A stretch of 64,000 nt of DNA from Patescibacteria group bacterium (lineage in GTDB: Bacteria; Patescibacteriota; Patescibacteriia; Patescibacteriales; UBA12465): positions 71,601 through 135,600 of the forward strand of contig JBAZJR010000001.1 of the NCBI GenBank assembly GCA_041651195.1, written 5' to 3'. The translations under genes and the position numbers were made by a program. The notes beneath the pieces were generated by a model. The model ran no database searches and was not told the DNA's origin. It saw only the letters and a program-made list of their open reading frames with translations. Shown piece by piece: positions 5,655-37,434 of the stretch (position 1 is its first letter; the number at the start of each line of letters is the position of its first letter).

Positions 5655-5657
5655 AAA

Positions 5658-8843: not shown

Positions 8844-9602
8844 TTATTTGATGATACCGCCGATCAGTTCGCGGAATTTTTGTTCGGAGAGGTCTCCGTA
8901 TAGGTAATAATTATTGACGAACCAGCTGGGCGTGCCCACGATTTCCAGGGCATTGCCGTCGTCATAATCCTTCTTCACTGCTTCTAGGTATTTACGGTCT
9001 GTCAGGCAGGTAGTGAAGCGGTCCTTATTTAATTTAAGAGTGTCGCCTAAGGCGATGAGCTTCCCCGGGCGCGCGCTATCAGCCGTCGTCAGGTTATCTT
9101 GATTTTCAAACAATAAATCATGCATTTCCCAGAATTTCCCTTGTTCGCCGGCGCAGCGCGCCGCCATCGCCAGGTCGATCGAATCTTCATTGCGCAGGTA
9201 ATCGCGCCAGACGACCTTGATCTGGCTGCTATATTCTTGCGCTAGTTTCTTGATGACCGGGGAAGACTCCTTGCAGTAAGGGCAAGCGAAGTCGCCGAAT
9301 TCGATAATTGTCACTTGCGGCGCCTGGCTGCCCAGAGAATAGTTCGTGCCGTCGCCGCTGATCGTTTTAAGATAAGCTTCTTTTTCCGCGGCGCTCATCT
9401 GCCAGCCTTGGCTGGCTAGGAGTTGCCGGGTGGCGTTGACGACATAGAGGCTGGCGAGAGCCAGATAGAGCAGTAGCAGCCCGGAAATTATCAGGATAAC
9501 TACCCCCCACCACTTCTTATACCAGGGTAATAAGACTTTTTGATGGCGCGCCTTCATGGCTGCGAATTTAAGCCGTTCATTCAGCTTAGAATCCAAACTC
9601 AT
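8844..9602 (-). CDS. Membrane-anchored DsbA-family thiol:disulfide oxidoreductase
   Basis: N-terminal TM helix (WWGVVILIISGLLLLYLALASLYVV). Thioredoxin-fold CxxC active site FGDFACPYCKE, with a DsbA-like helical insert and VGTPSWFVNN. Confidence 0.8.
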   Translation of the reverse strand: MSLDSKLNERLKFAAMKARHQKVLLPWYKKWWGVVILIISGLLLLYLALASLYVVNATRQLLASQGWQMSAAEKEAYLKTISGDGTNYSLGSQAPQVTIIEFGDFACPYCKESSPVIKKLAQEYSSQIKVVWRDYLRNEDSIDLAMAARCAGEQGKFWEMHDLLFENQDNLTTADSARPGKLIALGDTLKLNKDRFTTCLTDRKYLEAVKKDYDDGNALEIVGTPSWFVNNYYLYGDLSEQKFRELIGGIIK

Positions 9603-13786: not shown

Positions 13787-14404
13787 ATGCGTGATTCAAA
13801 TGCTAATTCAGGCCGGCTCCCTAAGCCCCAGAGGATGGCGGTGATTATCTTGGCGGCTTTGGCGCTAGCTATCGTCATTTTTTGGATCTGGCAGATCCGG
13901 GCGCAGATCAATCAGCCATTTGCTTTCCGGGATGGTGTCGATTATAGCAGCATTGCCAGCTCTACTGACTTGGCGACTCTCCTGAGGAGCAAAGATACAG
14001 ACAATGATGGCTTGTCGGATTATGACGAAATCTATACTTATAACACTTCGCCTTATTTGGAAGATACGGATAGCGATAATCTCTCTGATCGGGAAGAAGT
14101 TGAAAGAGGGACTGACCCGAACTGTCCGGAAGGGCAGAATTGCAATTTGAGCGTCCCAGTGGAAACGGATAGCGCTACTTCGTCCGCCACGGATTTGCCG
14201 CCCGCTGCGCCCGTTGATCTGAACGCCTCCGGTACCGATGAAGCGGCTCTGCAGAACGCCCTTAGCGGCCAGGTAGACGCCGCGGCTCTCCGCGCCCTCC
14301 TGATTTCCGCCGGCGCGAACAAGGAAGATCTGGATAAGATCAGTGATGCTGATTTGATGAGAAGCTATCAGGAGACTTTAAATAAGCAAAATCAAACTCC
14401 ATAA
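13787..14404 (+). CDS. Membrane-anchored protein with thrombospondin type-3-like Ca-binding repeats
   Basis: The ATG at 13787 is preferred over the track start 13715, which overlaps rsmA. TM anchor MAVIILAALALAIVIFWIW. Two D-x-D-x-D-G/N-x-x-D-x-x-E repeats (DTDNDGLSDYDE, DTDSDNLSDREE). The stop lies 2 nt before the giant ORF. Confidence 0.5.
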   Translation: MRDSNANSGRLPKPQRMAVIILAALALAIVIFWIWQIRAQINQPFAFRDGVDYSSIASSTDLATLLRSKDTDNDGLSDYDEIYTYNTSPYLEDTDSDNLSDREEVERGTDPNCPEGQNCNLSVPVETDSATSSATDLPPAAPVDLNASGTDEAALQNALSGQVDAAALRALLISAGANKEDLDKISDADLMRSYQETLNKQNQTP

Positions 14405-14406
14405 AC

Positions 14407-17400
14407 ATGTTTTCTTTTTTGAAGACGAAAAAAGAAAGGGCGAGTCGGCCAGGCGGGAAGATGGCTGTCATTTTTTTAAGCTTGAGTCTAGTCTTAACCC
14501 TATTATTGCCACTTAAGCCGGCGCAGGCGCAGGTTGGCGGTTTTGTTACGGATGTCGGCAATACGATAGTTAATTCAGCGGCTTGGGTCTGGGAGAAGAC
14601 CTCGACTGTCGTTTGGAACGCTATCCAGAAAGCCGGTTCCATCGCTTTCCAGCGGACCCTATCTTCCGCCCTGAATAAGATCGCTTATGACGCCGCTAAT
14701 TATATCGGTTCCGGCGGGCAAGGGCAGAAACCGCTTTTTGTCACGATGAGCTTAGAAAATTATTTGAAGCAGGCTGGAGATGAGGCAGCCGGGGCTTTCA
14801 TCGAAAGCTTCGTCAATAATCTGAACGCGCCGGATCAGAATATGACGTGTCAGAACCAGTATGATACTGACGTGCGGACCTGTGCTGATGTTTTTTTCGA
14901 TGATGCCGCCAGCTATCGCTACTGTATCAGCCAGGCCGATACGGCTGCCGTAGAGTGCGCGGCCAAAAATGCTAATTCCAGCAATGTCGGCAACGTTACC
15001 CCGTCTTTCAACGTCTGTAGCCCCTCTTCGTTAGAAGCGAAGATCAGGATCGGCCTTGGCTTGGTCGACCAGCAGCGGCCGCAAGGACCGAATTGTACCG
15101 CTTCGCAGATGATCAAGAGCTGGGGGGATGATATCAATAAGAAGTTAGCCAGCTTGCGTGACGATAATTATTTGCAGGAGTTCACTAGCATCTTTGATCC
15201 GCGCTCCAACGATGTCGGCATCTATCTTTTGGCGCGTGCGGACCTCTCTAGCCAGTCTAATTATAAGGAAGAGGTGACTAAGAGCGAATTTATTACCAAT
15301 AAAGGTTTCTTAGATGTCCGTGATATTGCCGGCGCCATCCAGGGCGTGCCGGGCGAGGCGCAGCGAGAAGCAGACGCGGCCGCGCGTGCGCGGCAGGAGG
15401 CTCTAGGAAAAACAACCGGCGATATCCTGATCGACTCGGCTAATATCTTTTTGAATCAATTATATATTGCTGCCTTTGATAATTTATTAAGGAATCTCGC
15501 GAAGCAGACGGGCGGCTCTAGCAGCGCGACCCTGACTGACCCCGGCGCCGATCCCGGCGCACAGAAGGGAGAAAAAGCTGTGAAGCAGGTGACAACCTCC
15601 TTGCTTCAGCCGAAATTCGGCATCCGGACTGATTATGACGTCTTGTCTTCTTTAGCAATCTGTCCGAATCCGAAGAATCCCGGCCCGGATAATTGCGTCG
15701 TTGATGATAAGTTCATGCAGGCGATTACTGAGAAGAAGACCGTGGCGGAAGCGATCGCTGACGGCTATCTCCACGGCGACTGGCAGATTACCGCGGAAAG
15801 CTATGGTAGCAGCTATAATAGCGCTTATTCTTTGCGCAATATCCTGATTTTACGGAAATATCGCATTGTCCCGACCGGCTGGGAAAAGGCGGCGCGAGAA
15901 CTCGTTGCCGACCCGGAAAAACCGAAAAAAGCGACGCTCAGCGACCTGGTTTCCTGCTTCGATCCAAATGACCAATATAATTCTTTCAGCACTGATTTCC
16001 TGGCTGAACGCGCCTGGTGCGTCGGCTTAGTCGACCCGAACTGGGTCTTGAAAGCACCGTTGAATTATTGCCAGAAAGAAGGCGTCGGCGCCCAGATCTT
16101 GAGCATGAACATCATTCCGGCCGTAGCGCCGGCTTCTAGCACGCTCAGTATTACCCGCGCTGATGACTATTGCGCGGACAATCAGACCTGTATCAAGGAA
16201 AAGGACGACGGCAGTTGCGAAGCTTACGGCTACTGTAATAGTGAAAGGCGGACCTGGAATTTCGATACCGCTTCTTGCCAACCGATCAATAATACCTGCC
16301 AATCTTTTTCCGACGCGGCTGGCCGGCGCTTTTCTTATTTGAAAAATACCTTAGATTATAGCGATTGTAATTCTAATAACTCCGGCTGCCGCCAGTATGC
16401 CTTGTCTGGGACCTATGCCGCTTCAACCCAGGCTGTTTCTTGGAATGGCGGCATTGTCCGGTATCTGAATAAGAACCTGAGCGCTTGCACTAAAAACAAC
16501 GAAGGCTGCACCGGCTTATTGCGGATCAAGCCGACCTGGGGCGCGAATCTGGTTATGAATTCCGATTTTACTAATGATAGCATTGGTGATAGCGCTACGG
16601 CCGGTAAATTGAACGATTGGCCGATCATCGGCCAGGCAACGATCGTCAATGCGAGCGAGGAGCCGGGTAACGCGTCCGGAAAAGCTTTGAAATTATCTTC
16701 GTCCTCCGGGTGGTCAGGCGTCTATTCTGATAATCGCAATTCGCTTTTGCCCGCCAATTTCCAAATTATGGGCGGCCAATCCTATACGCTAAGCGCGGAT
16801 GTTTATCTCGCCGCTAGAGGAACATCGGGGACGGGGGTTATAATGACGATTGGCGCTGGCACCGATAGCGTTTCTGTCGGCACGGATACTTTAAGCAGCT
16901 GGCAGCATCTAAGCGCGACCATGCCGGCCGGCCGGTCTTTCAATGAACCGGATTTTAAAGTTAGCGCCGGCGCCGGGGCAGTTTTCTATCTGCGGAATCT
17001 GAAATTTGAAATGAGCAATTGGGATACGGGTTATAGCTCTTATGGCGCCTTTAAATTTTATGAAAGATTATTGCCGCCTTATTTGGAGAAGGCCTGCTAT
17101 GTCGACGCGACCAGCGCGACCAAAGACTATAACCTGAAATCCGACGCGCCAACGGTCTGCGCGGATTATGCCCGTAAATGCAATAAGGATGAAGTCGGTT
17201 GCGAGCGTTATACTTCAGCCAGGGATAATTTCACGATCGGCGCGAAGACCACGGACGCGGACTACTGTCCGGCCGATTGTTTAGGTTATGACGTCTATAT
17301 CGCCCGCGGCAGCTATTTCAATATTCCGGTTGCGGAAAATTTGATTCCGGCTAAAGCGACCGCTTGTAGCGCCGCCGCCGCCGGCTGCAATGAATTTACG

Positions 17401-20400
17401 AATTTAGACGCCTTAAGCCAGGGCGGCGAGCAGAAAGAATACTATACGCGGCTCAAGCAATGCATCAAGCCGAGTGCGACGGCTTGTGCTAACTTTTATT
17501 CCTGGGAAGGAACAGAAAATGGTTATCAACTCAAGGCTTATAGCCTGAAAAAGAATGGCAGCCAACCGGCGGTGACCGCTCCGGAAGTCGCGGCTGACGG
17601 CAGCGCTTTATGCGATGCGGAAATCTATCGTCTCTCGCCCAGCGATCCGCGCTATAACGCGGATTGTCGCGAATTCTATAATGCCGCCGGGCAGGTTTCT
17701 TACCACCTGGTCTCCCGGACCTATACCTGTTCCGATAATTGCCGCACTTATCGGATGAGTGAGAAGAATGAAGGCAACGTCTGCCTGAATGGCGGCGTCT
17801 GGGACACGGCCGCTCAAGCCTGTATTTATCAGGCGATTCCGGGCGAAGGTCAGTCTTGTCGGGCGGAAGAGAGCGGTTGTCGTGAATATAATGGCAATAA
17901 CGGCAGCAATGTCCGTTTGGCCGCCTCCTATGATTTTGAGACCGGCCTGGGCGGCTGGTTCTCGCCGGTGGCTGGCGCGCTGCAGCTAAGCAATATCGCT
18001 AATAATAAAGATGGTCATTCTATCAAGATACCGGCTCAGGTGCCGATTGAGTTGCCGGTTAGCCATTTTGTCCGGTCCGGTTCGGCTTATAGCCTTAAAT
18101 TTTTAGCTCGTTCCGGCGTTGAAGCTGATCTGCAGATCAGCCTGCAGAACCCCGCGACTGGCGCCACGGCTAATTTTTCAACGGTCAAAGTCAAGGGCGG
18201 GAACGAATGGGGAATCTATCAGGCTAATCTCTTTAATTTAGATCACCCTGTCGGCCAGCCGACAGCCGGCTATCCGAATGGGGAGGTGATGTTCGTAAGC
18301 GCTAACGCCGATTTCTACTTAGACGATATTGTTTTAATGGAGTCGGGAATTTCTGATCGTTACTACTTGATCCGTAATTCCAGCCAGACGCCGGAAGCCT
18401 GTTATTATGATACCCAGAATCAATATCAAGGACCGGATTATAATCTCGGTTGCACGCAGTATACGGATCGGAACCAGCTTAAGCACAATCTCCACGGGTT
18501 TACGCGTTTGTGCTCGGATTCGGCCGTCGGTTGCGAACAGATGATCGATACTAAGAACTATTCGCCTTACGGTGCCGCTTTCTGGGAAAAAGGCGTCGCG
18601 ACTTCTAGTTGTAATGTCGCGGATGCCGATTGTGTCAAAGTAGAAGGCGATAGCGCAGTATATGCGGTCTATGATTCTGGCAAGCTCTGCAGCGCGGCTA
18701 ACCAGGGCTGCAGCCGTTTGGGCGAAGGGCAGGGCGGCGCTAATTTCACTGGCTGGGCGGATGTTTTCAAGAATAATAACCCGGATCAATATAATACGAT
18801 TCTCTGTTCTCAGGCCAATGTCGGCTGCGAAGAATGGAAGAATGTCGATGATAATACCGCGAGTTATTTCAAGAATCCGGGCGCGGCTGCCTGCGCTTAT
18901 CGGGTGAGCACGAATCCCGGCGTAATCGGCAAGCGCTGGTTCAAGATCCCGGTCAAGCGCTGCGATCTGGATGGCAGCGGGAAGATAGAGAGCGATGAGG
19001 GCCTCGGGCAGATTTGTACGAGCGACAGTAATTGCGGCGCTCGGAAATGCTTGATCGATAATAATGATTATGAATGCCCGGTCACCTATTCTAAGACGAT
19101 CGGTTTCGGCGGAACCGGCAACCAGGTCCCGACGCCGGCGGGGAATGCCGGGCAATGCGAAGCCAGCTTTTCCGGCTGCACGGAATATATCGATCCGGTA
19201 ACCCGTTTCGCGCCGAATCTGGTGATGAATCCCAGTTATGAACTAATCGAGGACAACTTAGACGGCTGGGGCGCGGCTAGCAAGGAGAAATGGAACGGTG
19301 CTGTTCCGGCCTCCGGCCAGCAGGCCATCCGGCTAGAACCGTATAAGCTCTATAGCGCGGTCGTGACTAATGGCTCGAGCGCCAGCCCGACTCGGCTAGT
19401 ATTCTTAAATGTTGTTAATCGTTTGGGCGATAATAATTTGTTTGGCGCCGCGACGACTTCGCTAGAAATCGTCAGCAGCCAGCCAGCCATTTTTAACGCC
19501 ATGAATAATCGAGCGGTTTTGATCCAAGGCGGCGCAGCCGGAAAAACGATCAGCGTCAAAGAGCTGGCCATCAATTATCAATTATTAAAGAATGTCGATA
19601 AGACCAGCTGCCAAGGGCAGACTAAGTTCGATAACGGCTGTATCTTATTTAATGAGCGCGCGGTAGACGGAGCCGCTCCGGCTAGTCTGACTGCGGACGC
19701 TTACGCGACTACGGATGGGACGACACCGGCGCTCTGCAGTACGGCCGGCTCTTGTACGGCCAATCGCCTAGTCAAGGTTCGTCCTGATCGGGTCTGCGCC
19801 AGCTGGCTGGATTGCATTTCCTATACCCAGGATCCGGTTTCCAAGAAAAAGACCTGCTACGCTTTCGGCGAATGCGACCGCTTAGACGATAAAGGCGAAT
19901 GTGCGAATTTCCTGAGTCCCAATCCCGATTCCGCGATCTTTACTCTCGACCCGAAAATCGATCAGAACGCGACCGGCTATTCTTTGGCCGACCAGTATAA
20001 TCTAAGTGACATGAAATTGGACGGCCGCAGCTTGGACACTGATTTTAAATACGACTTTGAAACTTATCCGTCGGCTTGCGCCTCCTCTGGCCAATATGGC
20101 TGTACGATCAATAGTCCGGATCTGGCGACTAAATTCGGGACTGATTATCCAGCCAATGGCTCGGCTTATCTTAAGGTCGGACCCAAGGTGGGAGAGGCCG
20201 GGTATCTTTTAGCTGAAGACATATCAGTCCGCTTCTCAGATACGGAAGAATATTATTTGAATTATCTGGTCAGCACGAAAGATTCGGCCGGCGCTTTTGC
20301 CCGGATAACGATTACTGACCAGCTTGGCTCCGTAACCTCGACAGACGTCCGTGCCGATACCGGTTGGCAGCGGAAAACAGAGAAATTAAAGCTCGGCGTC

Positions 20401-22266
20401 GGCAAGAAGGATTTGAAGATAGAATTATCCGCCTACTCTAACACCGTCCCCGGCCCGGTCTATTTCGACGATATCAGCATTACCCCGATCCTCAAGGTTT
20501 CTAATACCGTTTTCGCCGCGCCGGAATGCCGTCTCTATCCTTCCACGACCAGCCTGAGCTGCGAGAATAAGAATAAGAATGTCATTGCTGAAGGACTGAA
20601 GGGCTATTGCTTGGAACACGACCCGCTCAATCCGAATGTCTGTCTGCTCTGGTACCCGATGGATAATATTCCGGTTTCTACCCCTTCCAGCCTGGGCTAT
20701 AATGGCAATTTCCCCCTGAATTATTGCACGGAGGTAAGCGGGAATTTTGACATCGTGGAGAAGAGAGTGGGGTTCTTACAACAGGAATTTATGAGAGATG
20801 ACATTTCTCTTTCTGGGAGCTCTTGCGTCGGGGAAGAAAAAATTGGTGATAATGATAGTGAAGGCTCATATTGCGTTAAAACTAGTGGGCAATGTTATGG
20901 GACAGCGCATGGCGATTCAAATATCAGCATTACCCCTTGTCCGGCAGGCTATAATCTTTGGATTTCGAAAAAATGGTGTCCCGGGAATTGTGATGACAAT
21001 AATTATTTTAAGATTATCTGTGTTCCGAACGGCGGCGATCTATTATTAAAGGAGACTGAAACGGCTACTCATGAGCAATCAGCTAACGGCGGCGATTGGG
21101 CGGAATGCCAAAGCGACCCTTACCCGGTCGGGTATGGTATCTTTAATGGGTTCCATGGCTATGAATCTTCTCAGAAACCGAAGTTGATGGTCTATGATTA
21201 TAATGACGTTCCTGCTTCAGCGTCGGAGCTTAAGGCGATTCCCGGCCTATCCGAAGGAGTTATCGGTGAAGCGAAATATTTTAATTTTAATTGTACGAGG
21301 CTGTCGCCGACCGTTGAAGCGAGCGGAGCTAACCATGCTTGGGTAGAAAGGGTAAAAGAGAATTCCGGCTCTACCTTGAAATCGCCTTTCTTTAAGTCTG
21401 ATTATCCACAGAATCTGGCTGATACGCCTTTCGGCGCGGCTAGCCAGGGACAAACTGCCGGCAATGGAAAAATTTCGCTTCGCGACCTTTCTAATAAGAA
21501 TGATCCGGTTTATGCCGGCCGGCCTTATGGATGCGTCAATGGTATCGGCAAGAATTGTGACCTGATCGGAGCTTGTTCTGGCGATTCCAGCATATATTGT
21601 CTGGCGACTTCGACTACCGGCCTTAACCTCGGACAGACCACTTGCGGTAGCTACGGTACTTGCCAAGCTCTTTGGACGCCGTCGGCCGCCAGCTATACTA
21701 ATCCGTCAGCGAAGACTATCTTGAAAAATATCTTCTTGAGTGTTAAAGACGCCTTGGTTCTTAACTCCGATGGTAAATATGAATTGGATCCGAGCGCTAA
21801 TTTCGATTTTTCGCGGAACGGTTCAGGTTCGGAGAAGATTCCGTTATGTGTCGAGGAAACGCGTCCGTCCCGTTCTAGTTCCTATGCCGAAACCGAAGAT
21901 AGTTTCTGCGCCATCCTGCCCCAATTAACGAATATCAAGCTCTATTTCAATGACAGCCGGATCGGCTCGGATACTAATCCGTATAATATCGAACAGAAAG
22001 GCATCTACCGCTTAGAGTTCAACAGCTTGATCGATAGCGAGCAGCAGCCGCTCAAGAAGATCTATATCGATTGGGGCGACGGCTATACTCAGGTCGTAAC
22101 GAATGAAGATCATCGTCCGACAATCGGCGCGCCGCACGTTTTCTATCATTATTACTATCAAACTGGTGAAAAGACGATTACTGTTGCTGTTACTGATAAT
22201 TGGGGGTTCTATAAATGTAACCAGAATAGCTGCGCGCAGTGCAATCAGAGTAATTGTTCTAATTAA
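14407..22266 (+). CDS. Giant (2619 aa) exported Cys-rich modular surface protein with jelly-roll/CBM-like modules and C-terminal PKD-like domain
   Basis: Uninterrupted 7.86 kb ORF with a signal peptide (MAVIFLSLSLVLTLLLPLKPAQA-QV). It contains dozens of Cys in CxxxC/CxC-rich spacers. Four modules are seeded by NLVMNSDF (16546), YDFETGLGGW (17929), NLVMNPSY (19216) and YDFETYPS (20050). A PKD-like region sits near 21990-22215 (IYIDWGDGYTQ...HVFYHYY...GEKTITVAVTDNWG). Confidence 0.8.
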   Translation: MFSFLKTKKERASRPGGKMAVIFLSLSLVLTLLLPLKPAQAQVGGFVTDVGNTIVNSAAWVWEKTSTVVWNAIQKAGSIAFQRTLSSALNKIAYDAANYIGSGGQGQKPLFVTMSLENYLKQAGDEAAGAFIESFVNNLNAPDQNMTCQNQYDTDVRTCADVFFDDAASYRYCISQADTAAVECAAKNANSSNVGNVTPSFNVCSPSSLEAKIRIGLGLVDQQRPQGPNCTASQMIKSWGDDINKKLASLRDDNYLQEFTSIFDPRSNDVGIYLLARADLSSQSNYKEEVTKSEFITNKGFLDVRDIAGAIQGVPGEAQREADAAARARQEALGKTTGDILIDSANIFLNQLYIAAFDNLLRNLAKQTGGSSSATLTDPGADPGAQKGEKAVKQVTTSLLQPKFGIRTDYDVLSSLAICPNPKNPGPDNCVVDDKFMQAITEKKTVAEAIADGYLHGDWQITAESYGSSYNSAYSLRNILILRKYRIVPTGWEKAARELVADPEKPKKATLSDLVSCFDPNDQYNSFSTDFLAERAWCVGLVDPNWVLKAPLNYCQKEGVGAQILSMNIIPAVAPASSTLSITRADDYCADNQTCIKEKDDGSCEAYGYCNSERRTWNFDTASCQPINNTCQSFSDAAGRRFSYLKNTLDYSDCNSNNSGCRQYALSGTYAASTQAVSWNGGIVRYLNKNLSACTKNNEGCTGLLRIKPTWGANLVMNSDFTNDSIGDSATAGKLNDWPIIGQATIVNASEEPGNASGKALKLSSSSGWSGVYSDNRNSLLPANFQIMGGQSYTLSADVYLAARGTSGTGVIMTIGAGTDSVSVGTDTLSSWQHLSATMPAGRSFNEPDFKVSAGAGAVFYLRNLKFEMSNWDTGYSSYGAFKFYERLLPPYLEKACYVDATSATKDYNLKSDAPTVCADYARKCNKDEVGCERYTSARDNFTIGAKTTDADYCPADCLGYDVYIARGSYFNIPVAENLIPAKATACSAAAAGCNEFTNLDALSQGGEQKEYYTRLKQCIKPSATACANFYSWEGTENGYQLKAYSLKKNGSQPAVTAPEVAADGSALCDAEIYRLSPSDPRYNADCREFYNAAGQVSYHLVSRTYTCSDNCRTYRMSEKNEGNVCLNGGVWDTAAQACIYQAIPGEGQSCRAEESGCREYNGNNGSNVRLAASYDFETGLGGWFSPVAGALQLSNIANNKDGHSIKIPAQVPIELPVSHFVRSGSAYSLKFLARSGVEADLQISLQNPATGATANFSTVKVKGGNEWGIYQANLFNLDHPVGQPTAGYPNGEVMFVSANADFYLDDIVLMESGISDRYYLIRNSSQTPEACYYDTQNQYQGPDYNLGCTQYTDRNQLKHNLHGFTRLCSDSAVGCEQMIDTKNYSPYGAAFWEKGVATSSCNVADADCVKVEGDSAVYAVYDSGKLCSAANQGCSRLGEGQGGANFTGWADVFKNNNPDQYNTILCSQANVGCEEWKNVDDNTASYFKNPGAAACAYRVSTNPGVIGKRWFKIPVKRCDLDGSGKIESDEGLGQICTSDSNCGARKCLIDNNDYECPVTYSKTIGFGGTGNQVPTPAGNAGQCEASFSGCTEYIDPVTRFAPNLVMNPSYELIEDNLDGWGAASKEKWNGAVPASGQQAIRLEPYKLYSAVVTNGSSASPTRLVFLNVVNRLGDNNLFGAATTSLEIVSSQPAIFNAMNNRAVLIQGGAAGKTISVKELAINYQLLKNVDKTSCQGQTKFDNGCILFNERAVDGAAPASLTADAYATTDGTTPALCSTAGSCTANRLVKVRPDRVCASWLDCISYTQDPVSKKKTCYAFGECDRLDDKGECANFLSPNPDSAIFTLDPKIDQNATGYSLADQYNLSDMKLDGRSLDTDFKYDFETYPSACASSGQYGCTINSPDLATKFGTDYPANGSAYLKVGPKVGEAGYLLAEDISVRFSDTEEYYLNYLVSTKDSAGAFARITITDQLGSVTSTDVRADTGWQRKTEKLKLGVGKKDLKIELSAYSNTVPGPVYFDDISITPILKVSNTVFAAPECRLYPSTTSLSCENKNKNVIAEGLKGYCLEHDPLNPNVCLLWYPMDNIPVSTPSSLGYNGNFPLNYCTEVSGNFDIVEKRVGFLQQEFMRDDISLSGSSCVGEEKIGDNDSEGSYCVKTSGQCYGTAHGDSNISITPCPAGYNLWISKKWCPGNCDDNNYFKIICVPNGGDLLLKETETATHEQSANGGDWAECQSDPYPVGYGIFNGFHGYESSQKPKLMVYDYNDVPASASELKAIPGLSEGVIGEAKYFNFNCTRLSPTVEASGANHAWVERVKENSGSTLKSPFFKSDYPQNLADTPFGAASQGQTAGNGKISLRDLSNKNDPVYAGRPYGCVNGIGKNCDLIGACSGDSSIYCLATSTTGLNLGQTTCGSYGTCQALWTPSAASYTNPSAKTILKNIFLSVKDALVLNSDGKYELDPSANFDFSRNGSGSEKIPLCVEETRPSRSSSYAETEDSFCAILPQLTNIKLYFNDSRIGSDTNPYNIEQKGIYRLEFNSLIDSEQQPLKKIYIDWGDGYTQVVTNEDHRPTIGAPHVFYHYYYQTGEKTITVAVTDNWGFYKCNQNSCAQCNQSNCSN

Positions 22267-22307: not shown

Positions 22308-22937
22308 ATGAGTATCGATGATCGGCTCCTAAATCAGAATAGCGGCGCGGAACAGGCGGCCGATAAGGCCGGCAACTTGCGGGAGGCGCAGAGAGATGGC
22401 AGCGATCCGTTAGACGCCTCGGTAGGCAGTTCCCGGAGTTTGCGGGAAACGATCCTGGAAAAGCAGCGGCAGATTGCCCTGGAAACGAAGAAAGCGGAAT
22501 ATCTGAGCCTAGCGGGCGGCGCTTCAGCCGCGGCCGCGCCGATCCAGAAAGGCACCTCGCGGCTATTACGGCAATCTTGGCTGAATTTGATTGACAGTTT
22601 CGGCTTGACCTTGATTTGGATCAATATCCATGTTTTTCTGAGGTATGTTATCGGTGAAAAGTTCTTTTGTAAGCTAGGTAGAGAATGGGCAGACCTTTTG
22701 CCGGGCGGCGGACAGGCCGCGCCATTGTTAAAAGATTGGGCCGATAAATCAGGAAAATCTATCGGGACAGTAGAAATGATTGTGTTCGCTATTTGCGACC
22801 TGCTGCTCTTTCTCCTGATAATTGCTATAATTAGCTTAGTCGCCATGATTGTCGGGGTGATGGATAATCCGCTTAGTTTCTTTTATGAAGCCTTGAAATT
22901 GATCGCCGGCAGCCTATGGGAGGAAATCTCCAAATAG
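22308..22937 (+). CDS. Hypothetical membrane protein (T4SS-like locus)
   Basis: The ATG at 22308 is preferred over the GTG at 22275. Hydrophobic segments are GLTLIWINIHVFLRYVIG and MIVFAICDLLLFLLIIAIISLVAMIVGVM. No recognisable family. Confidence 0.5.
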   Translation: MSIDDRLLNQNSGAEQAADKAGNLREAQRDGSDPLDASVGSSRSLRETILEKQRQIALETKKAEYLSLAGGASAAAAPIQKGTSRLLRQSWLNLIDSFGLTLIWINIHVFLRYVIGEKFFCKLGREWADLLPGGGQAAPLLKDWADKSGKSIGTVEMIVFAICDLLLFLLIIAIISLVAMIVGVMDNPLSFFYEALKLIAGSLWEEISK

Positions 22938-22980: not shown

Positions 22981-25611
22981 ATGCCATCGATCACTAAGAA
23001 AAAATATTTTATCCTCTCGCTTTCGCTCCTTGTTGTAGCCGGAGTTTTTCTGGTCGGTCATAATGCCTTAGCGGAATCAGATTGGGCGAACGAGATCATT
23101 GCTGGCTTACTTGGTATCTTTATCTGGGCTTTGGGGATTATTTTGGGTCTAGCTCTGGAGACTTTAATTGTTATTGCCAGTTATCAGCATTTCATCGATT
23201 CGCAGGCCGTTATCCTCGGCTGGGTTATTGTGCGCGATATCTGCAATATGTTCTTCGTCATCGTCCTGATGATCATCGCTTTCGGCACTATTTTGCATCT
23301 AGAGGAGTATAGCTACAAGAAATGGCTGCCCAAGCTGATTTTGATGGCCATTCTGATCAATTTTTCTAAGACGATCTGCGGTTTATTGATTGACGTGACC
23401 CAGGTGGCGATGCTGACTTTCGTCAATGCTTTTAAGGATATCGGCGGCGGCAACGCCGTAGAAATGCTCGGCATCAGTGAGATCGTTACTTTATCCGAGG
23501 GTAATCTTAAGGGCGTTTTTAACATTGTTGGCGCCTACCTCTTGGGCATGATCTATCTGATCGTCTCGATCGTCGTGATCGTGACGATGATGATGATGCT
23601 CGTGATGCGCCTGGTTATGATTTGGATCTATGTAGTCTTATCGCCAGCCGCCTATCTCTTATCCGCTTTTCCGGGCGGCCAGAAATATGCTTCGCAGTGG
23701 TGGAGCGAATTTATCAAGAATCTGATTGTCGGGCCAGTCCTCGCTTTCTTTATCTGGTTATCTTTGGCTTCTCTGGGCGCGGGCAGCTCTTTTGAGAGCA
23801 CTGTCTATGGATCCGCCGGCGCTGATGAAAAGGCTAGCGCCTATGGCACGACTATTAATCAGGGCTTTACCGTCACTAATGCCTCTAAGCCAAGCGTCCT
23901 CATAAAATTCGTCGTGGCGATCGGGATGCTGGTCGGCGGGCTGATGGTTTCCCAACAGATCGGCGGCGCGGCCGGCGGCCTGGCCGGGAAAGGGATCGCG
24001 GCACTGCAGAAGGGGAAGGGACTGGCTCTCTCTGGAGGTAAGAAATTGCTCTCGGGCGATAATTATTTAGCCAGAAAGACGATGAAAATTGCAGGTTTTG
24101 ATGTTCGGCCGGTAGCTATTGGGGCGGCAATTAAATCTGGATTTGAAAAAACAAAAAGACAAGATGAAACTGACATCAAATTGCAGGGTATTAAAAATTT
24201 ACAGTCCGGCGGAGCTAGGGCGGTATTAGGGGGCGTAGGGGCAGGAGCAGACTGGACAGATAATTATGTTGGCGGCTTCCTTGGCGTTAAAGGAATTAAA
24301 AATTCTTTTAAAGAAATGTTTTCTAACCCCGGCAAGAGAAAAGATATAAAACAAGACATTGATAAAAAAAGTGAAGAGATTAGAAATAAAAAAGAGGAAT
24401 TTGACAGTAGTATCAGCCATACTAAGTTAGTTGAAGAAGAAAATAATTTAAGAGTCAATAGAGAAAAAGAGAGTAGCTTGGCTGATGATAAATTTCAGGC
24501 ATCAATGAAGGTCGGAGAAGCCAGGATTGCTCATGGAGAGTTTTCTAATGAATATAAGGAGGCAAAAAAGAAATATGATGAATTAGACAGTGTGCATGTT
24601 AGGACAAAAAAAGAAAATGACTCTAAAGAACAGGAAATTATTGAAAGGAGAACTAGTGTTAAATCAGATGAGGAATACGAAAGAATGGGAAAGGAAATTA
24701 AAGACAAAGAAAATGAGATGAGCCATTTGAAGAAAAAATTAGCTCAGGTGGCGACGCCTAAGGCCCTAGAGACTCGTGGAGAATATCGTAAGGCAATTAA
24801 TGAGAGTACAGCTAAGATTAAGGATGTTACCAATGCCGACGAGTTAATCAATCTCTATGATGATGCTGACCGTCGCGATAACAAATTTGATAAGATTGCT
24901 GTTCTAGAAAAATTATCTCATGATGCGAATCTCAATGAAGTCCTAAATGATAGAGGATACGGAGCTGATGCTGAGGGGTTATATAGGTTTACTCATAATA
25001 TGGAGAATGTTCGAGGTGAAAAGAGAGGGGTAACCGGGTTGGACGACCAAGAGGTTTTGCAATTATTTAATGATTTAGGTGAATCAGAAGAACGGGTCGG
25101 TCACTGGGAAATGGCTAAAACAGTCGTTATGAATGATAAAGGAGAGCTGGTTAGCTCAGTTAAACCAAAAATGAAGAACGCTGTCGGTAAAGAGGTTGAT
25201 TGGGATGGTAAAAATGAAAAAGACATAAGCGGATGGGATGATAGCGCTCATGTAATTGCCTCTGCTTCAGAAATTGCCAAACTTGATCCGCAGAAAATTT
25301 TGACTTCATTAAATCGTTTGGCGGTTGGTGGAGAGAATGGTTTTGGTAAATTTCAATTATCTAATTTAGGCCGCGTTCTAATTCAAATGTTAGATCAGGC
25401 GGGCGTTTTTGATGCTCAGAAAGGCAGATTACAGAACAATTTGGCTAGAAATTTGGCGTCGCCAGAGATCTTTCAAGAATTAAAGGATGTCTTAAATATC
25501 ACCAAGGCTTCACTCGACGCCATAAAATTACGGTCTGCCGCTAGCCCCTCCGATATTCTTAATAAGATGGCGCAAGCCCAAGTTAGAGAAAGACGTAGCC
25601 GTGGCGTTTAA
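22981..25611 (+). CDS. TrbL/VirB6-like polytopic membrane protein with long Lys/Glu-rich coiled-coil C-terminal extension
   Basis: At least six predicted TM helices lie in the first ~330 aa, followed by a Gly-rich segment (GGAAGGLAGKGIAALQKGKG). About 500 aa of charged, helical sequence follow. The position next to other T4SS-like genes supports the call. The family assignment is a topology/context inference. Confidence 0.5.
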   Translation: MPSITKKKYFILSLSLLVVAGVFLVGHNALAESDWANEIIAGLLGIFIWALGIILGLALETLIVIASYQHFIDSQAVILGWVIVRDICNMFFVIVLMIIAFGTILHLEEYSYKKWLPKLILMAILINFSKTICGLLIDVTQVAMLTFVNAFKDIGGGNAVEMLGISEIVTLSEGNLKGVFNIVGAYLLGMIYLIVSIVVIVTMMMMLVMRLVMIWIYVVLSPAAYLLSAFPGGQKYASQWWSEFIKNLIVGPVLAFFIWLSLASLGAGSSFESTVYGSAGADEKASAYGTTINQGFTVTNASKPSVLIKFVVAIGMLVGGLMVSQQIGGAAGGLAGKGIAALQKGKGLALSGGKKLLSGDNYLARKTMKIAGFDVRPVAIGAAIKSGFEKTKRQDETDIKLQGIKNLQSGGARAVLGGVGAGADWTDNYVGGFLGVKGIKNSFKEMFSNPGKRKDIKQDIDKKSEEIRNKKEEFDSSISHTKLVEEENNLRVNREKESSLADDKFQASMKVGEARIAHGEFSNEYKEAKKKYDELDSVHVRTKKENDSKEQEIIERRTSVKSDEEYERMGKEIKDKENEMSHLKKKLAQVATPKALETRGEYRKAINESTAKIKDVTNADELINLYDDADRRDNKFDKIAVLEKLSHDANLNEVLNDRGYGADAEGLYRFTHNMENVRGEKRGVTGLDDQEVLQLFNDLGESEERVGHWEMAKTVVMNDKGELVSSVKPKMKNAVGKEVDWDGKNEKDISGWDDSAHVIASASEIAKLDPQKILTSLNRLAVGGENGFGKFQLSNLGRVLIQMLDQAGVFDAQKGRLQNNLARNLASPEIFQELKDVLNITKASLDAIKLRSAASPSDILNKMAQAQVRERRSRGV

Positions 25612-25622
25612 TTATAATTTTT

Positions 25623-26624
25623 ATGCCGGAATATTTACAGGATAAAAAAATATTAGAAGAACTAGAGGCTTTCGCCGATTTGATGGTTGAGCAAGATTTG
25701 GTTGGAGATAGTATTACATTAGCGCATTTGATTGAAGGATTTTTTAAAGAATATCCCGAATTTTTTAAAAAAAATCCAGATCTTTTTAAAAGTTATGGCA
25801 GCTACCTGACCAAGGCTAAATTTGTGCACCTTTTTAATCTGGAGGATAAAGATATTGTTGATTTATTAAATAATCATTTAAGTCTCATTTTAGACTCGTT
25901 GAATTATGATCTATTCAACAAGATCAGACAAAAATTATTAACTATTTATGATTTGGCAGAACGAGACAAGCTCAAAGATAAGATGAGGGATTGCATTTTG
26001 AAAAATAGCGAGAAGATAACTACTGGTAAAATTAAAATTAATAATTTAGAACAAGAACCAACTATTGGCAACTGGGCTAAGGATTATTATTCTTATGTTG
26101 GCATCGAATCTGCTGATAGCTTGCTGCAAAATCAATATTTAGTCGACAATATTAATGTTAAAAAAATATCAAGTAAGGAAAAAATAAGAGTTAAAAAAAT
26201 TATTGATTGTTTGGAAAGATTTAAGCTATCCTCTGCGCAGAGGCATGGCTTAGAAGAGAGCTTTCCCGCCATTTCTCCTAATGGAGAATTGATTATTATT
26301 AGTAATGCCCAACCTCAAAAAGTGGACCCTAATATTATTAAGTTTTATAAAAAGGCAGCGTTGATTTCTGGTGGAGAATTACAGGATGAGAGCGCTTTTG
26401 CTAAGAAATTAGGGTCAGAGACAGGCGCCGCAGTACGATCCAGTATGTCATCATCGGTAGCTAAGCCCGCTCCCGCCCCCCTCGCCGAACTAGAACAAGC
26501 TTTAAAGAACTATCAAGAATCCAGCTTGGAACATAAGGCGATCAAACAGGAAATCAACCGTTTAAAAGTTGCGGCTTTCAAGCAAGCGCAGAAACCATTA
26601 CCAAAAACCAATGTTAAGAGCTAA
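25623..26624 (+). CDS. Hypothetical soluble protein (AT-rich gene downstream of TrbL-like gene)
   Basis: 333-aa ORF with no TM segments and no motif I recognise. Its 3' end overlaps the next gene by 14 nt. Confidence 0.55.
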   Translation: MPEYLQDKKILEELEAFADLMVEQDLVGDSITLAHLIEGFFKEYPEFFKKNPDLFKSYGSYLTKAKFVHLFNLEDKDIVDLLNNHLSLILDSLNYDLFNKIRQKLLTIYDLAERDKLKDKMRDCILKNSEKITTGKIKINNLEQEPTIGNWAKDYYSYVGIESADSLLQNQYLVDNINVKKISSKEKIRVKKIIDCLERFKLSSAQRHGLEESFPAISPNGELIIISNAQPQKVDPNIIKFYKKAALISGGELQDESAFAKKLGSETGAAVRSSMSSSVAKPAPAPLAELEQALKNYQESSLEHKAIKQEINRLKVAAFKQAQKPLPKTNVKS

Positions 26625-27570
26625 ATCGGCGCTAGTCGCCGTTTCCGGCTCCTTGGCTTATGATCAGATTATGGATTTCCCGGGCCGCTTCAGCGACCAT
26701 ATCCTGCCCGAGGCGATCCATAACCTGAACTTAAGCTTTTTTCTTAATAGCTGCCGTCAGAGCTTTGGCGGCACAGCCGGAAACATCGCCTATAATCTAT
26801 ATCTTTTACAAGAACGGCCGGCCATCCTCGGAGTAGCTGGTTCGGATTTTTTAAATTACCAAAAATTATTGAAAAGCCGGCGGGCGGATATTGGGCGGAT
26901 CCGCATCGTGCCTGGCGCGCGGACAGCCACCGCCTATATTATCACCGACCAAGGCGACAACCAGATCGCCGGCTATTATCCCGGTCCGCTCCCGAAAAAT
27001 TATGCCCGCCCAGCTGCGCTCAGCCTTGGCCCGGTTGATTTGGCGATAGTCGCGCCGGATGATAAAGATCGGATGCTCGCTTACTCCGCTGTCTACAAGA
27101 AAGGGCATACCCCTTATATCTTCGATCCCGGCCAGGCGCTGATTGCTTTTTCCGCCGTTGAATTGCGCCAGGCGGTTAGCGGCGCTAAGATCCTGATCGG
27201 GAACGATTATGAAATCAAGCTTATTCAGGATAAATTAAAAGTCAGCCTAGCTGCCTTGACCAAGCAGGTCGAGATATTAATTATCACGCAAGGCGCCCAG
27301 GGCTCGGAAATCTATCAAGGCAATGAGAAGATAGTCGTCAAAGCGGCCAAACCGAAAAATACTTCCGACCCGACCGGCGCCGGTGACGCTTATCGCGCGG
27401 GCTTGATAAAAGGTCTCTTAAAAGGCTATAATTTAAAGACTTGCGGCCAGATGGCGGCCCTCGCAGCTGTCTATACGGTGGAGAAATTCGGGACCCAGAC
27501 GCATAAATTCACTTTGAGAGAATTTCAAAAGAGATACCAAGAAAATTTTAAAGAAAAATTAGTTTTATAA
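26611..27570 (+). CDS. PfkB-family carbohydrate/nucleoside kinase (adenosine-kinase-like by context)
   Basis: PfkB signature DPTGAGDAYRAGLI near the C-terminus and GGTAGNIAYNL near the N-terminus. The ATG at 26611 is preferred over the track start 26569. It lies directly upstream of ahcY. Confidence 0.8.
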   Translation: MLRAKSALVAVSGSLAYDQIMDFPGRFSDHILPEAIHNLNLSFFLNSCRQSFGGTAGNIAYNLYLLQERPAILGVAGSDFLNYQKLLKSRRADIGRIRIVPGARTATAYIITDQGDNQIAGYYPGPLPKNYARPAALSLGPVDLAIVAPDDKDRMLAYSAVYKKGHTPYIFDPGQALIAFSAVELRQAVSGAKILIGNDYEIKLIQDKLKVSLAALTKQVEILIITQGAQGSEIYQGNEKIVVKAAKPKNTSDPTGAGDAYRAGLIKGLLKGYNLKTCGQMAALAAVYTVEKFGTQTHKFTLREFQKRYQENFKEKLVL

Positions 27571-27585
27571 AATTAGTTTCATAAT

Positions 27586-28839
27586 ATGACTCATCATGTT
27601 CAAGATCTGAAGCTGGCGGCTGACGGCGAAAAACGGTTAGAATGGGCCGGGCGCGATATGCCGGTTTTAGCCGGTATCCAGGCCGAATTTAAGAAAACTA
27701 AACCTTTTAGGGGAAAACGCATTTCCGCCTGCATGCATGTGACGGCCGAAACAGCTAACCTGATGTTAGCGCTCCAAGCCGGCGGCGCGGATATTACCTT
27801 GGTGGCCTCTAATCCTCTATCAACGCAGGACGATATCGCCGCGGCTTTGGTTAAGAATCACGGCTTGAAAGTTTTAGCACTCCACGGCGAAGATACTAAG
27901 ACCTATTATCAGCATCTGAACCAGGCTTTAAAGAATCGGCCGCAGATCACGATGGACGACGGCGCGGATCTGATTTCACTACTGCATAATAAATACAAGA
28001 ATCAGGCAAAGGATATCTTAGGGAGTATGGAAGAGACGACCACCGGCGTGATCCGTCTCCGAGCGCTCGCGGCGCATAATAAATTATTGCTGCCGGTCAT
28101 TGCTGTCAATGATGCCAAGACTAAGAACCTATTTGATAATCGCTATGGCACCGGGCAATCCACTTTAGACGGGATCATCCGGGCGACCGGCATCTTAGTT
28201 GCCGGCAAAACCATGGTTGTCGCCGGTTATGGCTGGTGCGGCCGCGGTTTCGCGATGCGCGCGCGCGGCATGGGCGCCAAAGTGATCGTGACGGAAGTAG
28301 ATGAGATCAAATCCTTAGAAGCGGCCATGGACGGCTTCCAGGTCATGCCGATGGTCGAAGCGGCCAAAGTCGGCGATGTCTTCTGTACACTCACCGGCGA
28401 TATCAAGGTTATTGATCGGGCGCATTTCAAACTGATGAAAGACGGCGCCATGGTCTGCAATTCCGGACATTTTGACGTGGAAATAAATATTCCGGCTCTT
28501 AAGAAGATGGCGCGGCGGGTGAACCGGGTGGCGGCGCAGGTGGAAGAATATCTGGTCGGGAGTCGCCGGATATATGTGCTCGGCCAGGGGCGCTTGATCA
28601 ATCTCGCCGCGGCCGAAGGCCATCCGTCCAGCGTCATGGACATGAGTTTCTCTACCCAGGCTTTAGCAGCCCTATATGTCGTGAAGAGTGCCGGCAAATT
28701 AAGCAGTAAGGTCCATAACGTGCCGGAAAGCATCGAAAAGAAAGTCGCCACCTTGAAGCTTAAGTCATTGGGGATAAGGATAGATAAATTAACCAAGGAA
28801 CAAGCGGCGTATTTAGCTTCTTGGGAATTGGGGACTTAA
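27586..28839 (+). CDS. ahcY: S-adenosyl-L-homocysteine hydrolase
   Basis: 417 aa. EETTTGV, the NAD-binding [17 protein letters not shown], and GHFDVEI are AhcY hallmarks. Confidence 0.95.
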
Positions 28840-28859
28840 AAAATAAGCTAAATTAGGGG

Positions 28860-28888
28860 TTGATTTATATATTGTAATAATATACAAT
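28860..28888 (+). promoter_or_regulatory. Promoter candidate for the MNT/HEPN pair
   Basis: TTGATT (28860-28865), a 17-nt spacer, then TACAAT (28883-28888). The -10 element lies inside the first operator-like palindrome. Confidence 0.4.
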
Positions 28889-28910
28889 ATATATTGTAAT
28901 AATATACAAT
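28867..28910. repeat. Two tandem 22-bp copies of a palindromic operator-like element
   Basis: atatattgtaataatatacaat occurs twice back to back (28867-28888, 28889-28910). Each copy contains the inverted repeat attgta-N6-tacaat. The array ends 2 nt before the ATG of a winged-helix-containing protein. Confidence 0.6.
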
Positions 28911-28912
28911 AT

Positions 28913-29458
28913 ATGTTGAATCTACAATCAAAAATAGTAAATAAAGTTATTGGCTTTTTTTTTATTAATCCGCAGAAAAGACTCTATTTAAAACAATTAG
29001 CAGAAATTTTGGACATTGATGCGGGGAATCTTTCGCGGCAGATTAAAAAAATAGAAGCGGAGGGGATTATCGGTTCAGAAAATGAAGGCCGGCAAAAACA
29101 TTTCTATCTTAATCCGGATTATCCTTTGCTTGATGAAGTTAAAAAAATTTATGAAACTAAATATTCTTTGCCATTAATATTAAAAAAAACCTTGGCATCG
29201 CTGGAAGGTTTGCAAGAGGCTTATATCTTCGGGTCTTACGCTAAAAATACCATGACGGCCGAAAGTGATCTGGATTTATTGCTCGTTGGTAATCATGATG
29301 CCTTAGAGGCACGCCGGGTGATACTGCCGCTGCAAAAAAGAATCGGTCGCGAAATAAATATGATTGATTTTTCTGAATCGGAATATCAAGAAAAAAAAGC
29401 GGCGGGCGATGATTTTATAAAAAATATTTTTTCGGGTAAATTTATTAAGATAATTTAG
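28913..29458 (+). CDS. Winged-helix + minimal nucleotidyltransferase (MNT) protein, antitoxin-like partner of HEPN
   Basis: The N-terminal ArsR/MarR-like wHTH is LYLKQLAEILDIDAGNLSRQIKKIEAEGII. The MNT signature is IFGSYAKNTMTAESDLDLLLVG (GS-x10-SD-x-D). Confidence 0.75.
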   Translation: MLNLQSKIVNKVIGFFFINPQKRLYLKQLAEILDIDAGNLSRQIKKIEAEGIIGSENEGRQKHFYLNPDYPLLDEVKKIYETKYSLPLILKKTLASLEGLQEAYIFGSYAKNTMTAESDLDLLLVGNHDALEARRVILPLQKRIGREINMIDFSESEYQEKKAAGDDFIKNIFSGKFIKII

Positions 29459-29460
29459 AT

Positions 29461-29856: not shown

Positions 29857-29860
29857 CATT

Positions 29861-31012: not shown

Positions 31013-31039
31013 AAGGCGGAGGGATAAAAGAATAATGAT

Positions 31040-32563: not shown

Positions 32564-32564
32564 T

Positions 32565-32978: not shown

Positions 32979-32979
32979 T

Positions 32980-34410: not shown

Positions 34411-34414
34411 TAAT

Positions 34415-35854: not shown

Positions 35855-35882
35855 GACTTAATCAGGACCATTAAATAAATGT

Positions 35883-37409: not shown

Positions 37410-37434
37410 ATTTTGGCGGTATATCTTTGTTTAT

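Follow-up and report, generated by a model that had tools for sequence, protein, structure and literature searches.

The DNA considered here, referred to below as the window, is a stretch of 64,000 nucleotides from a Patescibacteria group bacterium (NCBI GenBank assembly GCA_041651195.1, contig JBAZJR010000001.1, positions 71,601 to 135,600 of the forward strand), and it contains a gene for a giant, cysteine-rich protein of 2619 amino acids (aa). With modest confidence, this protein is read as a Sec-exported and conserved component of a type IV secretion system (T4SS) locus of the ABY1/Falkowbacteria type, belonging to the MPF-FATA-like (MPF, mating pair formation) systems of Patescibacteria, and most likely as the host-contact, or adhesion, element of this system. 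A role as adhesin or tip factor had been put forward in an earlier note, made from the sequence of the window alone, and we infer it as well. Patescibacteria, which may make up a substantial part of the diversity of bacteria, live in attachment to other microorganisms. Saccharibacteria, the one genetically tractable lineage, cannot grow on their host without the T4SS (PMC10633639). A survey devoted to the T4SSs of Patescibacteria classed them as MPF-FATA-like and detected neither a host-contact adhesin nor a PrgB homologue (PMC12102498). The giant protein offers a candidate for this function, the best one yet for the part of the Patescibacteria T4SS that touches the host.

The gene occupies positions 14407..22266 of the plus strand, starts with ATG and has zero internal stops over its 2619 codons; the single uninterrupted 7.86-kb open reading frame (ORF) of the earlier note is therefore real as read, and the seed and tail motifs listed there also lie where they had been placed (NLVMN at aa 714 and 1604, YDFET at aa 1175 and 1882, IDWGDG at 2554 and VTDNWG at 2595). 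The ORF is not an assembly artefact, since the identical protein is found in two assemblies, on contigs of 205,910 bp and 101,902 bp, and 67 of 84 related loci carry an intact full-length orthologous ORF of 2548-2911 aa. A homologue search returned 238 proteins, of which the best 120 are 2142-2911 aa long and 40-69% identical to the query; every named one among these 120 comes from Patescibacteria or Falkowbacteria. Relatives are encoded in at least 460 GTDB species genomes, and a profile of the N-terminal domain finds 1390 representatives at 50% identity (1076 with E<1e-30), the best 150 of which are nearly all 2400-3000 aa long. The gene is single copy in every relative examined. Thus, it is a strongly conserved, real gene of ultrasmall Patescibacteria, whose family is unannotated in public records.

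The genes of the T4SS cluster of the window are the following:

13787..14404, plus strand: single-pass membrane protein with TSP3 repeats (Pfam TSP3_bac, E 1e-7), 205 aa long when counted from the called ATG; the ORF itself opens with TTG at 13715

14407..22266, plus strand: the giant protein

22308..22937, plus strand: m220, small protein with C-terminal transmembrane helices, always paired with the VirB6-like gene

22981..25611, plus strand: m876, "extended VirB6"-like protein of 876 aa, with TrbL/TrbL_3 matches in homologues

25623..26624, plus strand: p333, conserved soluble protein, last gene of the first half of the cluster

50840..52366, plus strand: p508, found directly after p333 in 26 other loci

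52363..52788, plus strand: PrgI/VirB3-like protein with two transmembrane segments, 141 aa, 54% identical to a gene product of locus L086 with a weak Pfam PrgI match

52754..53470, plus strand: TrsD/TraC-like protein, 238 aa, 59% identical to an L086 gene product with a Pfam TraC-like match

53488..55431, plus strand: VirB4-type ATPase; Pfam P-loop_TraG (E 7e-27), AAA_10 and TraC_F_IV

55478..56101, plus strand: p207, after VirB4, with an N-terminal transmembrane segment and a globular domain; possibly a VirB8-like candidate, by position

The tight junction with an upstream gene for a Ca-binding TSP3 membrane protein was read correctly in the earlier note: its stop codon (TAA, 14402-14404) is followed by two nucleotides (AC) and then by the ATG of the giant gene. 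The TSP3 gene adjoins the giant gene in 80 of the 84 loci, that is, in every locus retaining upstream sequence. For the downstream side, the proteins of the window were searched against all loci and the 57 with a complete giant gene and at least 3.5 kb of downstream sequence were counted; a VirB6-like gene follows the giant in 51 of them. Of these 51 loci, 26 run directly into the homologues of p508, PrgI-like, TrsD-like and VirB4, with the order TSP3, giant, m220, VirB6-like (TrbL_3), p333, p508, PrgI/VirB3-like, TrsD-like, VirB4; 21 have PfkB/AdoHcyase genes at that point instead, like the window. L086, a distant Parcubacteria locus with a giant of about 30% identity, has the genes KsgA, TSP3, giant, m200, TrbL_3, p336, p572, PrgI, TraC-like, VirB4, p221, DsbA, RadA, in this order; the sequence upstream of KsgA differs, yet the order from TSP3 and the giant to VirB4 is kept. 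This locus also has a gene of the 23S_rRNA_IVP family (116 aa; L086:14761-15111), placed after the p508 homologue and before the PrgI-like gene.

In the window, p333 and p508 are parted by about 24 kb of metabolic genes (26569..50718: PfkB, AdoHcyase, MetK, an array of PEP-utilizer ORFs, HAD and PPDK_N), with a G+C content of 0.41-0.50 against 0.50-0.52 in the flanks. The block is an insertion, shared by 21 loci, which divides the T4SS cluster in the subclade of the window. Since 26 loci are contiguous from p333 through p508 to VirB4, the window carries the same T4SS cluster in split form. The locus combines a VirB4 with PrgI/VirB3-like and TrsD-like proteins, both recognised through their L086 orthologues, and with VirB6-like partners, a set proper to MPF-FATA-like T4SS loci. 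The VirB4 gene is followed by RadA and RecG, and ABY1 T4SS loci are described as carrying radA and recG (PMC12102498). With 26 loci continuous to VirB4 and the same order in L086, the link to a T4SS-like apparatus is stronger than had been proposed. No relaxase family turned up among the scanned window proteins, which do not include every ORF; a promoter and terminator scan returned sites no more frequent than in shuffles, so that nothing can be said from it on operon structure.

The assignment of m876 as VirB6-like rests on its homologues, the TrbL-family models giving no match to the window protein itself. Pfam TrbL is found in 4 of 40 orthologues (best E 1e-3), in weak alignments that span most of the model, and 11 of 60 homologues, P0300 among them, carry a precomputed match to PF19590 (TrbL_3); the earlier description of a membrane protein followed by a TrbL/VirB6-like gene thus holds by way of these relatives. 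An alignment of 40 homologues separates a conserved polytopic N-domain of about 340 aa from a variable, K/E-rich C-terminal half, an organisation that fits the "extended VirB6" type described in PMC12857230. A literature search on PF19590, TrbL_3 and DUF4141 found nothing useful. The region 24001..26000 stands out in base composition (G+C 0.377, GC skew +0.28, AT skew +0.14); it matches the C-terminal, cytoplasmic half of m876, where the protein is K/E-rich, poorly conserved and of coiled-coil-like character.

The giant protein itself is organised as follows, all segments being on the plus strand:

14407..14529, plus strand: Sec-type signal peptide (aa 1-41), with a K/R-rich n-region, an 18-residue h-region and A-Q-A followed by Q

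14530..15954, plus strand: N-domain (aa 42-516), mostly long alpha-helices by prediction, 8 Cys

15955..16509, plus strand: spacer S1 (aa 517-701), 13 Cys, beta-hairpins in the predicted model of aa 36-700

16510..17094, plus strand: module M1 (aa 702-896), Cys-free, probable jelly roll matching M2 and M4 by hhalign, the least certain of the four

17095..17880, plus strand: spacer S2 (aa 897-1158), 18 Cys, the most conserved region (mean identity 0.62)

17881..18399, plus strand: module M2 (aa 1159-1331), CBM_4_9-like, by Pfam in homologues and hhalign to M4

18400..19179, plus strand: spacer S3 (aa 1332-1591), Cys-rich, 18 Cys

19180..19608, plus strand: module M3 (aa 1592-1734), CBM16-like jelly roll by PDB profile, Foldseek and structure prediction, the outlier of the four

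19609..20103, plus strand: spacer S4 (aa 1735-1899), Cys-rich, 11 Cys, mean identity 0.49

20104..20526, plus strand: module M4 (aa 1900-2040), CBM4-like jelly roll by PDB profile and structure prediction

20527..21906, plus strand: C-region (aa 2041-2500), 21 Cys, the most variable part (identity 0.32)

21907..22215, plus strand: tail beta-sandwich (aa 2501-2603) with the motif IDWGDG...H.FYHYY...DNW, Ig-/PKD-like (Ig, immunoglobulin) in pattern only

The cleavable signal peptide claimed in the earlier note is well founded: the only Kyte-Doolittle hydrophobic peak of the protein lies at aa 15-40, a conserved A-x-A follows it, and A41 is invariant. The same scan reveals no hydrophobic segment outside aa 15-40 and hence no C-terminal anchor, and the C-terminus, which reads ...CNQNSCAQCNQSNCSN, has no LPXTG sortase signal with a hydrophobic anchor, in keeping with what had been noted there. 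The protein contains 94 Cys (3.6%), crowded into the spacers between the four Cys-free blocks (aa 702-896, 1159-1331, 1592-1734 and 1900-2040), as the description of long, Cys-packed spacers between modules had it; 81 of the 94 are at least 90% conserved in an alignment of 61 family members. A mini-motif, C-x5-G-C, occurs in 9 copies, where 2000 shuffles give 0.29 on average and never more than 3, and one copy precedes each of M1, M2 and M3. Mean identity to the query is 0.56-0.62 in the spacers except S4, and 0.36-0.50 in the modules, a distribution which fits a conserved scaffold displaying faster-evolving modules.

For the modules, the resemblance to carbohydrate-binding modules (CBMs) comes from homologues, profiles and predicted structure, the window protein itself being below Pfam detection (no match at E<=1). 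CBM_4_9 (PF02018) is found at the position of M2 in the homologues P0003, P0006 and P0115 with 29.6-33.9 bits, against a gathering cut-off of 25.9, and a precomputed PF02018 match exists on many family members. In profile searches against PDB sequences, M3 retrieves the CBM16 chains 2zew, 2zey and 3oea at E 0.02, M4 retrieves 4d0q (E 9e-4) and 1gui, the CBM4 of laminarinase 16A (E 2e-3), and M1 has no match. An AlphaFold2 (AF2) model of aa 1575-2619, built on a 20-sequence alignment and covering M3, M4 and the tail, has a mean pLDDT (predicted local distance difference test) of 61; the three domains themselves are all beta and reach 75-87, with M3 at about 80 and M4 at 75-80. When this model is compared with the PDB by Foldseek, the matches at probability 1.00 include CBM16 (2zey, TMt 0.46-0.48), CBM22 (4xup_C, 0.52) and CBM4-2 (1k42, 0.47), M3 recovering the same three chains as its profile search (TMt 0.42-0.48) and the single-domain matches together spanning TMt 0.42-0.52; multi-jelly-roll proteins, such as GH101 and Cry1A protoxins, are returned as well. 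Structure prediction and Foldseek, the check proposed in the earlier note, therefore find the jelly-roll fold for M3 and M4.

A profile-profile comparison by hhalign, with 45-63 sequences per module, relates M2 to M4 (E 2e-5, probability 77%, 77 columns), M1 to M2 (E 9e-4, 114 columns) and M1 to M4 (E 2.6e-3, 81 columns), and aligns M1 with M3 over 13 columns, the NLVMN seed alone (E 0.08); in a first round with 61 sequences the similarities had been weak throughout. On the evidence of Pfam in homologues, PDB profiles, AF2 with Foldseek and hhalign, at least three and probably four of the modules are jelly rolls of the CBM4/9/16/22 type. Of the four CBM4_9-like modules originally announced, M2, M3 and M4 stand, whereas M1, a probable jelly roll, is reached by its weak profile match to M2 alone. 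The scheme of two alternating seed types arising from an ancient two-module duplication is rejected, since M1 pairs with M2 and M4, M2 with M4, and M3 stands apart. A self-BLASTP of the protein gives no off-diagonal match at E<=10, so that internal duplication is invisible at the sequence level. Both seeds, NLVMN and YDFET, sit at the N-terminal edge of their blocks and resemble what we take to be the first-strand signature of CBM_4_9-type modules.

The tail was described in the earlier note as PKD-like. Its pattern, IDWGDG...PHVFYHYY...I.V.V.DNW, is conserved, with W, G, H, Y and DNW invariant, and AF2 predicts about 8 strands at pLDDT 75-87; the motif and a predicted beta-sandwich thus stand. 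Membership in the PKD family is rejected: PKD models give no match at E<=1 in the window protein or in 20 homologous tails, no PKD chain appears at E<=10 in a PDB search with the tail profile, and no PKD entry is among the top 50 Foldseek matches of the multi-domain model. A weak NCBIfam match of the tail to PamR, a pilus protein of the candidate phyla radiation (CPR), has E 0.034; it indicates an Ig-like fold only, the Pam pili belonging to other classes. Beyond the tail, the extreme C-terminus (aa 2604-2619, 22216..22263, CNQNSCAQCNQSNCSN) packs 4 Cys into 14 residues; being confined to the closest relatives (conservation 2-18%), it is a lineage-specific appendix.

The N-terminal part has a different character. 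The N-domain is rich in invariant polar residues (D, E, N, Q, W, R), and an AF2 model of aa 36-700 from 20 sequences shows helices in it, at a pLDDT of 43.6, too poor for a fold claim; Foldseek finds no match to this model at E<=0.001, and profile searches with aa 1-300 and aa 36-700 give no relevant PDB relative of the N-terminus. The N-domain, the spacers with their C-x5-G-C hairpins and the C-region, which together make up over half of the protein, appear to be new fold space.

The first residues offer a lead of another kind. For the first 300 residues of 76 orthologues, the best Pfam family is DUF4141, found in 6 of the 76 (best E 8e-5, all below the 30-bit cut-off), with a match that spans the signal h-region to about 15 mature residues. 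A search seeded with the Agrobacterium VirB5 collected 55 annotated VirB5 minor pilins, and 9 of these 55 carry a precomputed DUF4141. When the giant N-terminus is aligned to the VirB5 profile by hhalign, the ...P-A-x-A-Q-x-V-x-D... pattern falls in register over 25 columns (P 0.0009-0.0014), the mature N-terminus of the giant carrying the Q-x-V-x-D motif; with the leaders removed, the N-termini align 1-14 to 1-14 with P 0.023 versus 0.17-0.28 in reversed controls. The similarity does not extend into the VirB5 body. No VirB5-family Pfam match is present among the N-termini of the 76 orthologues, PF07996, which we take to be the VirB5/TrbJ model, being absent from their match lists, and no VirB5, TraC or TrwJ chain is found in the PDB profile searches with aa 1-300 or 36-700. 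Single NCBIfam matches to TrbJ among the 76 N-termini, at E 0.03, are noise and were not used as evidence. Leader and mature N-terminus therefore resemble VirB5 minor pilins weakly, which is a lead and not a membership.

Upstream of the cluster, the minus strand codes for proteins that may act together with the giant:

8844..9602, minus strand: membrane-anchored DsbA-like thioredoxin (CPYC); Pfam DSBA and Thioredoxin_4

3481..4785 and 5658..6779, minus strand: two VirB2-like membrane proteins (434 and 373 aa), each with a T4SS_pilin domain; PF18895, E 2e-6 and 4e-9

The DsbA gene, 4.8 kb upstream of the giant, is present in 63 of the 84 loci and adjoins T4SS genes in L086; its product is plausibly a candidate oxidase for the about 40 disulfides of the giant. 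In 57 of the 84 loci, pilin-like proteins are likewise encoded upstream. In the window their genes are interleaved with those of pyruvate:ferredoxin oxidoreductase (TPP_enzyme_C, POR_N, POR; 3481..7957, minus strand), an arrangement also seen in L001, L003 and L085, which are loci with gene calls; pilin-like membrane proteins inside such an operon are unexpected.

On the proposed mechanism, the exported chain would be oxidised outside the membrane, plausibly by the linked DsbA, to form a rigid, elongated, disulfide-braced stalk. Because it has no anchor of its own, it would be retained on the cell through protein-protein contacts with the VirB6-like platform, the Ca-binding TSP3 membrane protein, or both. 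The faster-varying CBM-like modules would be displayed outward and bind glycans of the host envelope, and this binding would bring the T4SS, together with its VirB2-like pilins, into place on the surface of the host.

A comparable arrangement is known from plasmid pCF10, where the adhesin genes PrgB/PrgC lie upstream of VirB6-like (PrgH), VirB3-like (PrgI) and VirB4 (PrgJ) genes. PrgB/PrgC of this Gram-positive MPF-FATA system are, like the giant, large Sec-exported surface proteins encoded upstream of VirB6-like, VirB3-like and VirB4 genes of a monoderm T4SS, and for both a role in contact with the target cell is presumed. The giant differs in having neither an LPXTG/sortase signal nor a C-terminal anchor; it has no sequence relation to PrgB/PrgC, its CBM jelly rolls on a disulfide scaffold being an unrelated architecture, and it is chromosomal and vertically conserved, whereas PrgB/PrgC are plasmid-borne. 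A second comparison is offered by Patescibacterium danicum (ABY1), whose giant FhaB-domain exoproteins are proposed to act in host adhesion and have no full-length homologues, with apparently fast domain shuffling (PMC11809585). These too are very large predicted surface proteins of the same class; the giant, unlike them, remains collinear and is conserved over its full length in hundreds of species, and no FhaB family is among the Pfam matches of the window protein and its homologues. The family thus consists of large, unannotated surface proteins, conserved from end to end, heading a T4SS cluster in hundreds of species. Their lectin-type modules, varying faster than the scaffold, make a concrete and testable candidate for host recognition, and the four CBM-like modules are recombinant targets for finding host ligands of uncultivated lineages.

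Several observations weigh against a host-contact role within the T4SS. The high conservation of the giant is atypical of host-specific adhesins, its N-domain is poorly modelled (pLDDT 43.6), and no relative is recognisable for the N-domain, spacers and C-region, which add up to well over half of the chain. In the window the VirB4 core lies about 31 kb from the giant. Unrelated genes of 0.5-7 kb stand between the giant and the m220/VirB6 pair in many loci, and the VirB6-like gene is missing downstream in L048, L066 and L081, three loci whose flanks measure at least 9 kb. Moreover, housekeeping order is also conserved in the clade, LeuRS, KsgA and RadA flanking the cluster, and for this reason adjacency of giant and T4SS counts for less than it would if the genomes were unrelated.

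An alternative, which we hold to be distinctly less probable than the T4SS adhesin, is that the giant is a general scaffold of the envelope or surface layer (S-layer), or a stand-alone adhesin for hosts or particles, independent of the T4SS, with a neighbourhood that reflects inherited gene order only. The housekeeping order DsbA, Exo_endo_phos, LeuRS, KsgA is kept in 63-78 loci, the insertions before m220/VirB6 and the absence of this pair from L048, L066 and L081 point the same way, and a single-copy gene with strong full-length conservation fits a structural role. However, the order TSP3, giant, m220, VirB6-like to VirB4 survives in L086 despite a giant identity of about 30% and a different gene upstream of KsgA, the leader and N-terminus of the giant resemble VirB5, and no S-layer (SLH) or cell-wall-binding family is found among the Pfam matches of the window protein and its homologues.

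Within the T4SS adhesin interpretation, the VirB5 resemblance allows a more specific and tentative proposal, to which we give about the same limited credence as to the scaffold: the giant may be the missing VirB5-equivalent pilus-tip adhesin of the Patescibacteria T4SS. Its VirB5-like N-terminus and helical N-domain would be docked on the pentamer of the "extended VirB6", the VirB2-like pilins would polymerise beneath, and a disulfide-braced tip with four lectins would be carried outward to host glycans. According to the current model, the VirB6 pentamer is the docking site of VirB5, which comes to lie at the tip of the pilus (Mace et al. 2022, as summarised in PMC12857230), and Patescibacteria T4SSs have VirB2-like pilins with no reported VirB5 or adhesin (PMC12102498). 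The giant shares with VirB5/TrbJ a Sec signal followed by a Q-x-V-x-D-type mature N-terminus with sub-threshold DUF4141, a position near a VirB6-like gene (one small gene between) in a T4SS locus with VirB2-like pilins, and an N-domain predicted to be helical like VirB5, at the pLDDT given above. It is about 12 times larger, the similarity is limited to about 25 residues, or 14 without the leader (P 0.02), and VirB5 has neither the CBM modules nor the Cys-rich scaffold. If the proposal were true, this tip adhesin would exceed every known VirB5 in size by an order of magnitude, and it would belong to a system essential for the epibiotic lifestyle.

It is improbable that the giant is a secreted carbohydrate-active enzyme or wall-degrading factor, in which a catalytic N-domain of unrecognised type would be aimed at host polysaccharide by the CBM-like modules, for example in the role of a VirB1-type hydrolase. 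CBM4/9/16/22 modules are usually appended to glycoside hydrolases, the top Foldseek matches are CBMs of GH101, xylanases and endoglucanases, and the N-domain has the many invariant polar residues named above. VirB1 homologues, furthermore, are rare near virB4 in Patescibacteria (PMC12102498). The giant shares its M2 (Pfam gathering score in homologues), M3 and M4 (profiles and Foldseek) with CBM4/CBM9/CBM16/CBM22 proteins but, unlike these, has no recognisable glycoside hydrolase attached, its carbohydrate binding being putative from sequence and fold. Matches at E<=1 to a family of glycoside hydrolases, lyases, SLT, CHAP or peptidases are absent from the window protein, three full homologues and 76 N-termini, the profile of aa 36-700 matches no PDB enzyme, and about 1900 residues of conserved, non-catalytic scaffold would be hard to explain in an enzyme. 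Least credible of all is a toxin-like effector of the Cry, Vip3 or binary-toxin type, released to harm the host, since the Foldseek matches to Cry1A protoxins, Vip3Aa and iota-toxin Ib (E 1e-6 to 3e-4) are due to shared jelly-roll domains and have TM-scores of 0.07-0.2 with a root mean square deviation of 19-27 A, no pore-forming or enzymatic toxin family is detected by Pfam in the window protein and homologues, and the gene is a single copy conserved in all relatives studied.

Other features of the window concern the metabolic block between p333 and p508. Positions 31040..48667 and 49777..50718 hold a tandem array of about 10-11 paralogous ORFs of 477-512 aa, all on the plus strand. The five that were scanned (31040, 32893, 35883, 39579, 47129) all have only a C-terminal PEP-utilizers mobile domain (PEP, phosphoenolpyruvate; E 1e-22 to 1e-26), and a separate PPDK_N (ATP-grasp) protein (E 2e-97) follows the array, which also begins after MetK in L001, L003 and L004. 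By its domain content, the array looks like a split and massively duplicated system of the PEP synthase/PPDK type. Between AdoHcyase and MetK, at 28913..29856, lies the gene of a MarR/HTH and nucleotidyltransferase (NTP_transf_2/Polbeta) protein (181 aa), with an ORF of 131 aa after it; this pair, absent from L001 and L004, looks like an inserted toxin-antitoxin system of the MNT/HEPN type.

Finally, many public third-party annotation (TPA) records of metagenome-assembled genomes titled "uncultured Gammaproteobacteria bacterium" carry the giant locus with Patescibacteria-type flanks (L008, L010, L015, L016, L028, L029 and others), and these titles look like a systematic taxonomic mislabel; among the other loci, L030 is labelled Bacillota and L047 Saccharimonadales.

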